Below are positions 18,272 to 64,000 of a stretch of DNA of 64,000 bases, one piece after another. Numbering within the stretch: position 1 is the first letter of the stretch; every line of letters starts with the position of its first letter. Location: sequence record LC620505.1. One strand, given 5' to 3'. This DNA comes from Escherichia phage NiC89. A model generated the notes under the pieces. The model was given only the letters and a program-made list of their open reading frames with translations, was not told the DNA's origin and did no database searches. The translations under genes were made by a program, and so were the position numbers.

Positions 18272-19191
<920 letters not shown>

Positions 19192-60143: not shown

Positions 60144-60344
60144 ATGGTACAAAAATTAATGGCACTTGTTAATGCCATAAAAGGTAATAAAAAACGTATA
60201 GCTTTTACTATTTCTGCTATGGTAGGAATTTTACTCTGGAACTTTATTCTATCACCTATTGCAATTGCACATGGTATTAATATTCCAGTAGTTACTCTTG
60301 ATACATTTGTAGATTTAGCATTTGCTTTAGTTGGGTTAATTTAA
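60144..60344 (+). CDS. small hydrophobic membrane protein (66 aa) on the opposite strand
   Basis: ATG preceded by GGAGG; two hydrophobic segments; no minus-strand ORF across 60144-60340. Confidence 0.4.
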   Translation: MVQKLMALVNAIKGNKKRIAFTISAMVGILLWNFILSPIAIAHGINIPVVTLDTFVDLAFALVGLI

Positions 60345-61369
60345 ATCTTAGCATATTTAGATAACCGCATTTTAGCCATCAACCCCTGGGCAATATTATT
60401 TTTCATATATTCCATAATTTGTTCAGGGGTTGCACCTTCCTTTCTAATCATATCATTAACATCTTTTGATTTCCAGGGAGATTTATCCCAAAACATAACC
60501 CTTTCTCCTGCATCAACTAATTTAGTCATTCGCTTGATAGTGTCAGGGTGACGAGGTTCATTATCTAAGACCCACACTCGTCTATCTTTAAATGGAACAA
60601 CTTCTAGGTCTAATTGACCACCCGTAATAGCTATACCATTTTCAATAAAAAGTGAATCTATAGGTCCTTCTAGAACATATACATCGCCATCTTTAACTCG
60701 TTCAACACCGTAAATTTTTGTTGCCTCAGGATAAGCTTTAATGGTGATATATTTTTGAGGAGCATCTTTCTTTAATGCACGTCCTTGAAAAGACTCAGCC
60801 TTTCCGTTAGCATTATAAATTGGAATAACAAGACGAGGCTCAGGTATTTCCTTTTTATATGTTCCCGGTACTATGCTATTAACCAATTTAGGCCATTCGG
60901 TTGTAAACCAAAGATATTTCCATTTATCCTTTGGAATACAACGAGCTTTTACATATTTTATAATTGGATGGTCTTCCGCCAGTTTATCTAATCTAACACA
61001 TGACGGAAGAGATTTAATTATTTTCTTCTCAGGTTGTTTAGGAAGTTCTTTAGGTTTTTCTACTGGACGACTTTTACCTTTTTCTTTTCTTATTTCAAAG
61101 ATATACTCACGATATAAATCAGGTTCAAACTCCTTTAAATATATTCCTATTGGTGCATGATAGTTACAGTTATAACAGTGAATATTTCCTTCATTATTAT
61201 CACCATAATACCATCCACGAGCTTTATTCTGGTCGGTTTTTGAATCTCCACAAACAGGGCATCTAAACCGCAATTTAAAAGTTGAACTATTATTTACTTG
61301 TGTGAATTTAGGTAAATGAGCTAATGCACGGTATGCAAACTCATTATCAATCCAAGGTATTGATGACAT
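60341..61369 (-). CDS. 61: DNA primase gp61
   Basis: 342 aa; zinc-binding CPVCGDSK...CYNCNYH motif. Confidence 0.92.
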   Translation of the reverse strand: MSSIPWIDNEFAYRALAHLPKFTQVNNSSTFKLRFRCPVCGDSKTDQNKARGWYYGDNNEGNIHCYNCNYHAPIGIYLKEFEPDLYREYIFEIRKEKGKSRPVEKPKELPKQPEKKIIKSLPSCVRLDKLAEDHPIIKYVKARCIPKDKWKYLWFTTEWPKLVNSIVPGTYKKEIPEPRLVIPIYNANGKAESFQGRALKKDAPQKYITIKAYPEATKIYGVERVKDGDVYVLEGPIDSLFIENGIAITGGQLDLEVVPFKDRRVWVLDNEPRHPDTIKRMTKLVDAGERVMFWDKSPWKSKDVNDMIRKEGATPEQIMEYMKNNIAQGLMAKMRLSKYAKI

Positions 61370-61371
61370 TT

Positions 61372-61536
61372 TTACTCTTCTTTTTCTTTAGATTCCTCTT
61401 TTTTCTTTTTAGGAATCTGTTCAGGACCTTTATTTACTACAGCGCCTGATGTTGTTCCAGTAGAGATATTTTCAGGACTACCACCTGAATCTCCAGCAAC
61501 CATATCTTCTTTGATAAATTCTTTATATGTTTTCAT
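61372..61536 (-). CDS. hypothetical small protein (54 aa)
   Basis: Own translation MKTYKEFIKEDMVAGDSGGSPENISTGTTSGAVVNKGPEQIPKKKKEESKEKEE; not in ORF track. Confidence 0.4.
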   Translation of the reverse strand: MKTYKEFIKEDMVAGDSGGSPENISTGTTSGAVVNKGPEQIPKKKKEESKEKEE

Positions 61537-61582
61537 ATTAACCTCTATTCATAAAAGCATTAAAAATTTGGTCATCAATCGA
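61534..61582. repeat. direct repeat copy 1 (about 49 bp), 3' boundary of the 118-aa gene
   Basis: catattaacctctattcataaaagcattaaaaatttggtcatcaatcga. Confidence 0.8.
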
Positions 61583-61894
61583 TGGAATAGCAACTTTTTC
61601 TGCATCATTTAGCAAATCATTAATTTCATCAGATAGCATAACACATGTATCTTTATTTCCTGTAATTGTTACTGCGCAATTACGAACATTTTCTTTATTA
61701 AATTTTAGGTTAATATTTTCGTAATGAAAATCCTTTAATGCTGAATATATTTTTAAAATAAAATTGTCTTTTACTACAATAAACCCAACCTCACTATTAA
61801 AACGTGGCTCATGGAAACTGTAATAAACCTTTTCATCTATAAAATCGTATGAAATTTTTTCCATTTTTAAATATGAAAATTCAGAACTATACAT
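61538..61894 (-). CDS. hypothetical protein (118 aa), single-domain paralogue of the adjacent 213-aa ORF
   Basis: GFIVVKDNFILKIYSAL block and C-terminal SIDDQIFNAFMNRG shared with neighbour. Confidence 0.5.
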   Translation of the reverse strand: MYSSEFSYLKMEKISYDFIDEKVYYSFHEPRFNSEVGFIVVKDNFILKIYSALKDFHYENINLKFNKENVRNCAVTITGNKDTCVMLSDEINDLLNDAEKVAIPSIDDQIFNAFMNRG

Positions 61895-61940
61895 ATTAAC
61901 CTTTATTCATAAAAGCATTAAAAATTTGATCGTCAATAGA
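61892..61940. repeat. direct repeat copy 2 (about 49 bp, ~45/49 identical), 5' boundary of the 118-aa gene
   Basis: catattaacctttattcataaaagcattaaaaatttgatcgtcaataga. Confidence 0.8.
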
Positions 61941-62537
61941 AACTTTTACTTTAGGCTGTTCTTCAAACGGTAATTCATATCCACATATTACAATTTTGTG
62001 ATCGATACCAAAATACACAGAAGCAATATGATTAATATTATTTTCAGTGAAATCTAAATCAACATCAATATCTTTTTGACCACAGCCCAAAGGATAAATA
62101 ATGCGAGTAATTCGATTATCTTTAACAAATATTCCACCGACATACTCTGTGCTGCGTTTAAAGTCTACACGCCGACGAAATGAAAAATATTCAGGCTCTC
62201 TATGAGCTCGGCTCATAGGACACAACGAGTAACTAGAATAAGAGATGTCAAATCCTACGCCTTCAATATGAGCCAACGTGTCATGATTAAACCAATTATA
62301 ATCGTACGCCAAGTCCATTAGATTATAATATGTAAAAGGCACCGGATTAACATCATATGTTGTACCTTTAAAATCTGCCCAGGCAACGATTTCATTATCT
62401 TTAACAATTACAAAAATTGTGCCAATAAGATATCCACGGTTATTTTCATCAGGCGTTATATTATAACATTGTGCATCAGGAAATTTACCGTATTTAAACG
62501 GTGGATTTTTGTGCATATAATAAATCATATTATTCAC
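61896..62537 (-). CDS. hypothetical protein (213 aa) with internally repeated domain
   Basis: Two copies of a VKDN-containing block (TIFVIVKDNEIVAW, GGIFVKDNRITRII); C-terminus SIDDQIFNAFMNKG. Confidence 0.5.
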   Translation of the reverse strand: MNNMIYYMHKNPPFKYGKFPDAQCYNITPDENNRGYLIGTIFVIVKDNEIVAWADFKGTTYDVNPVPFTYYNLMDLAYDYNWFNHDTLAHIEGVGFDISYSSYSLCPMSRAHREPEYFSFRRRVDFKRSTEYVGGIFVKDNRITRIIYPLGCGQKDIDVDLDFTENNINHIASVYFGIDHKIVICGYELPFEEQPKVKVSIDDQIFNAFMNKG

Positions 62538-62823
62538 CTGTGATTTCGGTTACGATATTTTTGTTATTAAAGTTTTTATCGCAATACAGAACATAATTAT
62601 ACTGCATTACACCACCAGACTTAAGCTGTTTTTGTACTTCAGCTTTCATTTCAGGACGATCGCGCTCAACGATATTCATAATATCCGCTTCAATTTGAGT
62701 TTCAACTTCAGTCTGATCCGCAGTCATAGACCATTCACACAAATCTTTATCATAACCTGCCATAGCAGGCTGAGCAGCACAAGAAGCTAAAGCAAAAATT
62801 GTAGCAAAAATAAATTTTTTCAT
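62530..62823 (-). CDS. sp: Spackle periplasmic superinfection-exclusion protein
   Basis: 97 aa with signal peptide MKKFIFATIFALASCAAQPAMA; size and position match T4 sp. Confidence 0.65.
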   Translation of the reverse strand: MKKFIFATIFALASCAAQPAMAGYDKDLCEWSMTADQTEVETQIEADIMNIVERDRPEMKAEVQKQLKSGGVMQYNYVLYCDKNFNNKNIVTEITGE

Positions 62824-62883
62824 GATAATCTCCTCAGTAGTTTATGTTTATATAGTATCTCAATTTCCAACAAAAGTAAATAG

Positions 62884-63141
62884 TTATTTTAAAACTTCTG
62901 CATAATCACATGTTACAAACTGTTTCTCTAACTTAACGATCTTACGAAAATATCTTTTGCATTGACGAATCTGCCTCTTCGTAGGACGTACAGCAAACTT
63001 AATAAATTCCACTCGACCAAATGGAGGACTTTCTTCTGCTGGAATATCTAGCACCAATTCCCATGTATCTGCAATAAGTGCTTTGAATTGCGTATTTTTC
63101 CTGACGTTATATGGAGTAGGTTTAAATAAAACAATATGCAT
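62884..63141 (-). CDS. hypothetical protein (85 aa) adjacent to dmd
   Basis: ORF track; position corresponds to the T4 ORF next to dmd. Confidence 0.5.
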   Translation of the reverse strand: MHIVLFKPTPYNVRKNTQFKALIADTWELVLDIPAEESPPFGRVEFIKFAVRPTKRQIRQCKRYFRKIVKLEKQFVTCDYAEVLK

Positions 63142-63142
63142 A

Positions 63143-63325
63143 TTATCCTCGGCAATCTACTTCACATACTTTCTTGTCATCAATGAAAGCTTTAACTAAT
63201 GCTTTATTAACTTCAGCATATTGAGTAGTAGCCCATTGAACGTCATCTTTCATCATTGTGGTTTCTTTAGTAAACATGCTTTCATTCTTAAACCACCCCA
63301 TAAAAACTACCTTTACCAATTCCAT
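63143..63325 (-). CDS. dmd: Dmd antitoxin (inhibitor of host RnlA/LsoA)
   Basis: 60 aa, MELVKVVFMGWFKNESMFTKE... matches T4 Dmd. Confidence 0.88.
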   Translation of the reverse strand: MELVKVVFMGWFKNESMFTKETTMMKDDVQWATTQYAEVNKALVKAFIDDKKVCEVDCRG

Positions 63326-63352
63326 AACAATCTCCTCATTTAACCAACAAGA

Positions 63353-63384
63353 CTACTATACCATAGTCTTGTCAGCTTGTAAAC
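63353..63384 (-). promoter_or_regulatory. early-promoter-like element upstream of dmd
   Basis: GTTTAC 63379-63384 overlapping the gene 41 stop, 18 nt, TATAGT. Confidence 0.45.
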
Positions 63385-64000
63385 TAAAATTTTAATTCAT
63401 TTGCCAAAGCATCTAACTGAGCTCGAGCTGATTCGTTTCTTTGATAGCGATTCTGTTCAGCCTGAATCTGTTGTGAACCTGCTACTTCACTCACTTCGGT
63501 TGGAGTAGAATCTTGTTCAATTTCTACCCATTTTTGATTTCCTTTTTGAACACCCATCAAAAACTTATTCCACTTATTCTTATCACCATATCGTGATTTG
63601 ATTTGCTTAATGAGTTGTTGTTCAGCAGCTGCTAGCTCCTCGGTTTCAATGACCGCAAGCATAAAATCAGCTGTTGCTGGAAGACCGGCAGATTCTGCAA
63701 TATCGCTCATGTTAACATCGGAAGAGTCCCAAGCTTGTTTACCGACCTGTGCTGCAGTCCAAAGAACAGTTTCGGTTTCAACAGCAAGAGCACGTAATTC
63801 CTCTGCAATAGCTTTAACAGTTGTGTAACTATTTTCTGAATAAACTCTGATGCGGCAAGATTTACAAATACCTAGATAGTCGACAATAATGATTGTTGGA
63901 ACAAAATTCTTTTTGAGCTTCAATTCATTCAAGAGAGACCTGAATGTATTAGCGTCTGCTCCACCAGTAGGGTACTGTTTAACGATTAAACGACCGAGAG
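63384..64000 (-). CDS. 41: replicative DNA helicase gp41, C-terminal part (gene runs off the window end)
   Basis: DnaB-like C-terminal sequence; ORF open to the window end. Confidence 0.85.
   Translation of the reverse strand, partial: LGRLIVKQYPTGGADANTFRSLLNELKLKKNFVPTIIIVDYLGICKSCRIRVYSENSYTTVKAIAEELRALAVETETVLWTAAQVGKQAWDSSDVNMSDIAESAGLPATADFMLAVIETEELAAAEQQLIKQIKSRYGDKNKWNKFLMGVQKGNQKWVEIEQDSTPTEVSEVAGSQQIQAEQNRYQRNESARAQLDALANELKF

Follow-up and report, generated by a model that had tools for sequence, protein, structure and literature searches.

Escherichia phage NiC89 (sequence record LC620505.1) carries, in the 64,000-nucleotide stretch of its DNA that we analysed (hereafter the window), a 118-codon open reading frame (ORF) that lies between the counter-defence gene adfA (gene 61.2) and gene 61.1 and is flanked by two direct repeats of 49 bp. 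Sequence comparison shows its product to be a paralogue of the C-terminal half of AdfA, with a single domain, that is old and has been kept by selection. The repeat is a common 3' module of the two genes in which four roles overlap: 14 C-terminal codons, a match to the MotA box and -10 element of a middle promoter, a Shine-Dalgarno sequence and the start codon of the next gene; of these, promoter activity is a prediction. In related phages the 118-codon gene is present or absent as a unit bounded by the repeats, probably through recombination between them. We give a probability of roughly 0.7 to the reading as a whole, i.e. an AdfA locus with an ancient paralogue, a composite repeat, a repeat-mediated cassette indel and a putative inhibitor encoded by the cassette.

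The repeat and the genes that end in it

A repeat search returned a single strong direct pair, at 61534-61582 and 61892-61940, in which the 49-nucleotide copies are 45/49 (92%) identical and 358 bp apart. A degenerate 43-nucleotide consensus of the repeat has exactly two sites in the 64-kb window and none in 100 shuffles. Read on the coding (minus) strand, each copy encodes S-I-D-D-Q-I-F-N-A-F-M-N-[K/R]-G, followed by TAA, a single T and an ATG. The upstream copy (61892..61940, minus strand) comprises the tail codons of adfA (…SIDDQIFNAFMNKG), the TAA, the T and the ATG of the 118-codon ORF, and the downstream copy (61534..61582, minus strand) the tail codons of that ORF (…SIDDQIFNAFMNRG), the TAA, the T and the ATG of gene 61.1. 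The copies differ at four positions, just one of which falls in the promoter stretch (in the spacer), and the sequence of T4 is that of the downstream copy except for the first tail codon (TCT in T4, TCG in the window). An earlier note, made from the letters of the window alone, had described the ORF as flanked by two direct repeats of about 49 bp, each containing the end of one gene (14 codons and the stop) and the start codon of the following one, and the coding-strand reading agrees with this exactly. The repeat has no stem-loop, and no terminator-like site was found in 61200-63500.

The larger gene (61896..62528, minus strand; 210 amino acids and a stop, at the same place as gp61.2 of RB51) matches the Pfam family AdfA (PF23813) with an E-value of 7e-139 and 460.5 bits against a cut-off of 27. 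The earlier note had reported an ORF of 213 amino acids; this reading (61896-62537) exists and its residues 4-213 cover positions 1-211 of the AdfA profile, i.e. the full length, but its GTG start lies inside the spackle gene sp, whereas the ATG annotated in RB51 and its relatives (62528, one base after the sp stop) gives 210 amino acids. The same note had found no function to assign to the family. The PF23813 match supplies one, the large ORF being AdfA (PMC11825919), and the annotation of phage Ec_O157kw likewise reads 'anti-DarT factor A'. This factor, known from T4 and RB69 as gp61.2 (LeRoux et al. 2022, in the account of PMC11825919), is a small protein that reportedly binds the DNA ADP-ribosyltransferase toxin DarT1 and thereby blocks it, and the substitution R164H in RB69 AdfA leads to binding of DarT1 (PMC11825919). 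At the equivalent of RB69 R164 the AdfA of the window has His (…NNINHIAS…), the allele type reported to neutralise DarT1. The RB69-like phage P0018 reads …NNINRIAS…, where the Arg is residue 168 counted from MIYYM and 164 from MHKN, the start used in the primers of that paper.

The 118-codon ORF (61538..61894, minus strand; PHROG 4122) resembles the C-terminal half of AdfA, the domain with specificity residue 164, at 37% identity (BLASTP E 4e-11) and ends in the same 14-residue tail. It scores 34.9 bits (cut-off 27) against Pfam AdfA over profile positions 113-211 only and aligns by HHalign with AdfA residues 112-210 (probability 97.8%, E 8.7e-13). Nothing in the protein corresponds to the first 100 or so residues of AdfA, and it is thus a single-domain relative, not an AdfA orthologue. 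Its Asn72, which the AlphaFold2 model and the alignment place on the helix after strand 5, aligns with the His/Arg switch of AdfA, so that the switch residue is neither His nor Arg. RB32 and RB51 annotate the gene as RB32ORF033c and RB51ORF035, 'similar to gp61.2'; a full-text literature search for the name RB32ORF033c returned no paper.

AlphaFold2 predicts a compact 118-residue protein (mean pLDDT, the predicted local distance difference test, 79.6; core about 90) in which five strands are followed by a helix, one more strand and a second helix; the tail forms a last, C-terminal helix of low confidence. Sequence and structure searches gave no match of AdfA or the 118-residue protein to solved structures or known folds. 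The family is small (5 and 16 clusters in word-indexed searches; 10 clusters at 50% identity among 1.84 billion representatives) and, as far as these searches reach, is confined to T-even-like phages; homologue searches gave no cellular relatives to suggest a mechanism.

The smaller protein had also been said to resemble each of two internal repeats of the larger one. This holds for the C-terminal half, and is weakly supported for the N-terminal repeat carrying the VKDN block: the two halves of AdfA match each other at E 0.11 by BLASTP and at P 0.001-0.005 by HHalign (probability 7-19%). Internal duplication of AdfA was rejected as a sequence-level result, the HHalign match not being significant, and was kept as a structural hint only. 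In the AlphaFold2 models, both AdfA residues 1-77 and the 118-residue protein show five strands followed by a helix, with VKDN on the hairpin of strands 3 and 4, and on these models a three-copy domain family is plausible.

Variation in gene content and the boundaries of the cassette

The census given here consists of estimates from summary counts of INPHARED searches, since IMG/VR gave only 15 and 7 loci; few genomes were examined base by base. T4 has the order sp-adfA-61.1 without the 118-codon gene, T2 and RB14 have sp-118-61.1 without adfA, and RB51, RB32 and the window have both genes, with a 118-residue orthologue 95-98% identical and in the same place. A full-length AdfA match is present in 486 records, and about 126 have the 118-codon gene without AdfA; the 118-codon gene at ≥80% identity is present in about 294. 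Among about 610 T-even records, about 52% have AdfA only, about 27% both genes and about 21% the 118-codon gene only. The T2 gene (PV958097, locus L029 2064-2420) encodes a protein 94% identical to that of the window. In all, 907 tail sites were found, spread over 709 records, and none of 60 rows sampled had more than two. Gene content therefore varies across T-even genomes, and the fixed two-gene arrangement that the earlier note had named as evidence against an adaptive hotspot does not occur. The variation it expected in copy number takes the form of presence or absence of each gene; amplification was not seen.

Five relatives without the 118-codon ORF (T4, MZ234013, phage 132 and two metagenomic relatives) were aligned to the window by blastn. 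In all of them the aligned blocks end at 61892 and resume at 61582, with an overlap of exactly 49 nucleotides in the query. Hence, the indel is one repeat period bounded by the repeats, a unit of 358 bp (61583..61940, minus strand) made of one repeat and the body of the 118-codon ORF; the earlier note had missed this exact bounding. In all sequences read, gene 61.1 is preceded by a tail of the form GAT GAC…AGA (Arg), irrespective of the gene body in front of it, and the tail of AdfA before the 118-codon gene ends in AAA (Lys); the K/R variant thus tracks the downstream gene and not the body to which the tail belongs. A 91-mer designed for a central crossover, with GAC GAT of the AdfA copy on its 5' side and AGA plus 61.1 on its 3' side, has a 100% match in phage vB_EcoM-101112UKE3-1 (MZ234013), in which sp-adfA-61.1 has only one tail and the flanks match those of the window at 95-97% identity. 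A chimeric repeat of this kind is what homologous recombination between the copies is expected to yield. The exact boundary pattern itself is a necessary, insufficient sign of repeat-mediated deletion.

Synonymous codon use was compared between the two tails. In the window, 9 of the 12 codons for the same residue are identical, where 6.4 are expected from window codon usage (P 0.105), and gene conversion between the tails of this window was rejected, the test not being significant. In two other genomes the synonymous identity between tails is 11/12 (P 0.003-0.005, uncorrected), which hints at occasional homogenisation between tail copies.

We regard as rather unlikely the alternative that the DNA repeat is a passive by-product of an invariant peptide, AT-biased codons and a shared junction, with presence and absence of the gene arising from ordinary exchange within the conserved genes on either side. 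The non-significant codon test of the window fits it, as does the frequent general recombination implied by the finding of all four combinations of the N-terminal alleles of AdfA (described below) with presence or absence of the cassette, which indicates a region that recombines freely. However, indel boundaries that match the repeats to the base in 5/5 relatives, the natural occurrence of the predicted chimeric repeat in MZ234013 and the excess of synonymous identity in two other genomes all speak against it.

The alleles concern the N-terminal domain of AdfA (residues 1-62; 62343-62528), which falls into two deep allelic classes with 25-26/62 residues identical (seen at the related loci L003, L028, L034, L036 and L037), while the rest of AdfA is 91-97% identical between the classes. 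Both N-terminal classes occur with and without the 118-codon cassette, and AdfA is therefore a mosaic. It appears to be modular, with a variable N-terminal domain of two deep alleles, a C-terminal domain and an invariant tail.

In genomes with sp followed by the 118-codon gene and no adfA, a 12-nucleotide spacer, TTAGAGGTTAGT, precedes the ATG (L007 2989-3000; L029 about 2052-2063) and is similar to the last part of the tail repeat, AGAGGTTAAT. This spacer may have been left behind by the deletion of an upstream gene with such a tail, or may be just the ribosome-binding site.

Overlap with middle promoter P61 and selection on the tail

The repeat also coincides with a mapped promoter, an overlap that the earlier note did not report. 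The middle promoter P61 of T4 has its start site at 19122 (PMC2988021 Table 1), and the MotA box consensus is (a/t)(a/t)(a/t)TGCTTtA, 12 ± 1 bp upstream of the -10 element TAtaaT (PMC2988021). In T4 coordinates the stop of 61.2 occupies 19132-19134 and the ATG of 61.1 occupies 19128-19130; placing the P61 start on these gives TAATAT as the hexamer from -12 to -7, with the MotA box 12 nucleotides upstream. The -10 element thus spans the stop codon and the single T after it and ends with the first two bases (AT) of the next start codon. The box, TAATGCTTTT, matches the consensus at 9/10 positions and is made up by the N-A-F codons, with a 12-nucleotide spacer. Both copies in the window keep TAATGCTTTT, the 12-nucleotide spacer and TAATAT, and so have the sequence of a MotA-dependent promoter. 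In the downstream copy the MotA box lies at 61562-61553 and the -10 element at 61540-61535, with a predicted start near 61528; by sequence and position this copy is the positional orthologue of T4 P61. In the upstream copy the -10-like TAATAT lies at 61898-61893, and by analogy with T4 a start is predicted near 61886. The annotation of phage Lutter places promoters at both tails.

The tail is likewise conserved as a peptide. Its core DDQIFNAFM is invariant in 15/15 tails while the codons for its D, Q, I, A and F vary, which shows selection at the peptide level. A resemblance of the tail to the C-termini of the T4 and RB69 polymerases would allow a sliding-clamp-binding motif, a reading that we do not advance. 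The tail is also present on a family of 145-residue proteins whose body HHalign cannot align to AdfA: the two are linked through the tail only, with E 1e-8 over 15 residues. In a Foldseek comparison the predicted structure of the 145-residue protein matched the 118-residue model with E 2e-4 and a TM (template modelling) score of 0.59. The published T4 ΔadfA allele is 61.2Δ65-196 (PMC11257639 strain table), which leaves residues 1-64, the C-terminal tail and, with the tail, the P61 promoter region in place; a tail-dependent function would therefore survive in that mutant.

These data bear on the alternative that the repeat is conserved mainly as DNA, i.e. as a duplicated MotA-dependent middle promoter for 61.1 and primase, with the peptide as a side effect. 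T4 P61 does map onto the repeat, and the last 30 nucleotides are invariant within Tequatrovirus except for one spacer base. In Gaprivervirus and Dhakavirus, however, the MotA box has decayed to TGCCTTC, and RB69-like phages have TGCATTT in its place, yet the peptide is unchanged in each; moreover, the DDQI part is equally invariant though it lies upstream of the promoter elements. Since the MotA box degrades where the peptide stays and DDQI lies outside the promoter, the repeat is under both constraints, of which that on the peptide reaches further. Conservation chiefly as promoter DNA is accordingly an unlikely account of the repeat.

Age and coding status of the 118-codon gene

Outside the tail, the 118-residue protein and the C-terminal half of AdfA share 26/78 residues (33%) and their genes 106/234 bases (45%), and they are not near-identical copies; in the tail, 38/42 bases are identical between the paralogues. 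With only 33% of residues and 45% of bases shared outside the tail, synonymous sites are saturated. Genes of the 118-codon type, 44-49% identical, occupy the same slot in Gaprivervirus and Dhakavirus, where they follow a 145-codon gene with the same tail, and more divergent members of 120 and 125 amino acids stand directly after sp in other T4-like contigs. These comparisons establish the paralogy as ancient.

It is thus very improbable that the pair is a recent adaptive tandem duplication or segmental amplification, of the kind described for T4 dmd-tifA under toxIN selection. The two paralogues do lie side by side on the same strand, and the locus readily amplifies in the laboratory through short homologies (PMC9391042); against this stand the low identity outside the tail, the lack of the N-terminal domain in the 118-codon gene, the orthologues of both types in other genera and the tail census (907 sites in 709 records, none of the 60 sampled rows with more than two). 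The proposal of the earlier note that a domain family had been expanded in a counter-defence locus is upheld for the paralogy of AdfA and the 118-residue protein in that locus; its expansion as a recent adaptive duplication is not.

The 118-codon ORF is a real gene, as its selective constraint, compact model and retention without AdfA indicate, and that it should be a decaying pseudogene fragment of a full-length second adfA copy is hardly credible: only the C-terminal half of AdfA is covered, as a fragment would require, but the ratio of nonsynonymous to synonymous substitution rates (dN/dS) is 0.03-0.39 pairwise among five orthologues and signifies purifying selection, the length is constant across genera (116-122 amino acids), the predicted fold is compact and confident, the gene starts at a coupled junction with a ribosome-binding site and ATG of its own, and it is kept in about 126 genomes that lost AdfA.

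Proposed mechanism and its weak points

As the copies are direct and 358 bp apart, homologous recombination can cleanly excise or insert the 118-codon cassette. Recombination between the 49-bp copies would remove or add the cassette, and either product would retain an intact gene end, the promoter of the primase operon and a coupled start codon. The 118-residue protein would be made from dmd/sp transcripts by coupled translation: transcripts from the upstream copy would start inside the 118-codon ORF, so the protein must come from transcripts that start further upstream, candidate sources being an early promoter before dmd or a promoter before sp. By analogy with AdfA, the protein may bind a toxin, and it is a putative toxin-binding inhibitor with a specificity unlike that of AdfA.

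Several points weigh against this account. That the upstream copy is active as a promoter, or that either copy is so in this phage, is a prediction from T4. Matches to a loose MotA-box/-10 pattern number 29 in the window where 14.7 are expected, about half of them thus being chance; with an enrichment of only about twofold, the promoter argument rests on orthology to T4 P61 and not on the motif alone. Given the codon test of the window (P 0.105), gene conversion is not required to maintain the repeat as DNA. In MZ234013 the chimeric junction could be an ancestral single-copy state or the result of ordinary exchange within the flanking genes, and the sample read base by base is small, at a few genomes. 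With regard to function, T2 without adfN cannot plaque on DarTG1 cells (PMC11825919 section 8); T2 carries the 118-codon gene, which at native levels thus fails to neutralise that DarT1. The same is true of the AdfA of T4.

A broader interpretation, which we put forward as speculative and doubtful, is that the slot after sp is a cassette system for counter-defence specificity, in which the shared tail is a portable functional module and its DNA a recombination joint. The bodies, toxin-binding and either unrelated or much diverged from one another, would be the two-domain AdfA, the single domains of 118-125 amino acids and the 145-residue family, all with the same invariant peptide. The tail may act, for example, as a docking helix for one common partner, and the unit of tail DNA, promoter and start codon may let phages swap, stack or drop bodies while expression of the downstream primase operon is undisturbed.

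Surrounding genes

The window is of the RB51/RB32-like Tequatrovirus type, and the interval belongs to the T-even "anti-toxin island". The 2.1-kb interval matches 664 phage records, nearly all of them T-even phages of Escherichia or Shigella, and its closest matches, RB51 and RB68 among them, are 96-98% identical over the full length. All genes of 60341-64000 are on the minus strand. In that order, a partial gene 41 (helicase) comes first and is followed by dmd (63143..63325; Pfam Dmd E 1.8e-45), the antitoxin against RnlA/LsoA; tifA (gene 61.4; 62884..63141), the ToxN inhibitor; sp (62530..62823; Pfam T4_Spackle E 3.5e-45), the conserved left neighbour of the variable slot; adfA; the 118-codon ORF; gene 61.1 (61372..61536, 54 amino acids), whose start codon lies inside the downstream repeat; and the primase gene 61 (60341-61369). 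The earlier note had placed the duplicated genes in one cluster with Dmd and Spackle and had suggested that the 85-codon ORF next to dmd might be the ToxIN-inhibitor gene of T4. The Pfam matches confirm the first point and set the paralogues among counter-defence genes. The second was correct as well: the 85-residue product is identical to T4 gp61.4 at 84/85 positions (99%), it scores 72.7 bits against DUF7279 (cut-off 24.5), its gene lies between dmd and sp as in T4, and gp61.4 was renamed TifA, a ToxN inhibitor, by Srikant et al. 2022 (PMC9391042).

A consensus scan gave a sigma-70-like promoter match (TTTACA-17-TATAGT with TG; 63355..63383, minus strand) upstream of dmd, the place where T4 has an early promoter (PMC9391042). 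Junctions in which a stop codon and an ATG are separated by one base (TAATATG) occur at sp/adfA, adfA/118 and 118/61.1 within 61369-63325, and their sequence suggests translational coupling along the cluster from dmd to 61. PADLOC gave no matches.

Some relatives differ from the window elsewhere in the island. In some close relatives an ORF of 84 amino acids stands between tifA and sp (L007 2385-2639; L034 and L035 1394-1648), where the window has a spacer of 60 nucleotides only (62824-62883), and this is a second presence/absence site in the island. In Gaprivervirus and Dhakavirus a second gene of the DUF7279 (TifA) family, of 73 amino acids, directly follows two tail-bearing genes (L005 3311-3532; L006 3350-3571), and the position of tifA after dmd is taken by a gene of 98 to 113 amino acids, for which a DUF7279 score was obtained only in a related metagenomic contig (L030). 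The 113-codon gene after dmd in one Gaprivervirus (L004 1867-2208) shows a weak resemblance to Dmd (E 0.0017, short of the Pfam cut-off) and may be a diverged dmd paralogue. Outside the island, a hydrophobic ORF of 66 amino acids lies on the plus strand at 60144-60344, between genes 56 and 61 (RB32ORF030w in RB51); as T4 dam sits at the place of this ORF, dam is absent from the 56-61 interval of the window.

Significance and relation to known systems

The genes of this locus were already known or annotated, and the observation is largely explained by known biology. What is added here is that the 118-codon gene encodes a half-size relative of AdfA, is widespread and occurs in T2, that a protein tail overlaps promoter P61, and that there is evidence for a cassette bounded by repeats. 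About 40% of the records of the T4 genus (Tequatrovirus) carry the half-size relative. T2 has been described as naturally lacking an adfA homologue (PMC11825919), and its possession of the 118-codon relative matters for DarTG experiments and for the search for an anti-DarTG2 factor. A single 49-bp stretch combines a conserved peptide, a middle-promoter match and a translation start, an overlap that constrains its evolution, and the same stretch is a clean joint for gene gain and loss. We consider this a modest refinement of a known counter-defence locus, by which current understanding is not overturned.

Among known systems the nearest is AdfA of T4 and RB69, of which the 210-codon ORF of the window is an orthologue, as indicated by the full-length Pfam match, the His residue and the position after sp. 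The 118-residue protein has the C-terminal domain and the invariant tail in common with AdfA; unlike AdfA, it lacks the N-terminal domain of about 100 residues and has Asn at the specificity position. RB32ORF033c and RB51ORF035 (PHROG 4122) are the same gene as the 118-codon ORF, with products 95-98% identical, and their likeness to gp61.2 was already annotated, without a function. As for the promoter P61, T4 has one copy and this phage two.

Modular shuffling mediated by PeSL elements was reported for T4-type phages in 2010 (PMC2839356). There, as here, short repeated regulatory sequences that flank non-essential genes provide homology for the insertion, deletion or replacement of single genes. 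A PeSL is, however, an intergenic early promoter with a stem-loop terminator, whereas the present repeat lies inside coding sequence and matches a middle promoter; with no terminator-like site in 61200-63500 and a repeat that is not intergenic, it is not a PeSL. The segmental amplification of T4 dmd-tifA under toxIN selection (Srikant et al. 2022, PMC9391042) takes place in the same island, and there too short direct homologies change gene dosage or content. That amplification is recent, uses microhomologies of 6-10 bp and yields identical copies, in contrast to the ancient paralogues and the 49-bp homology described here.

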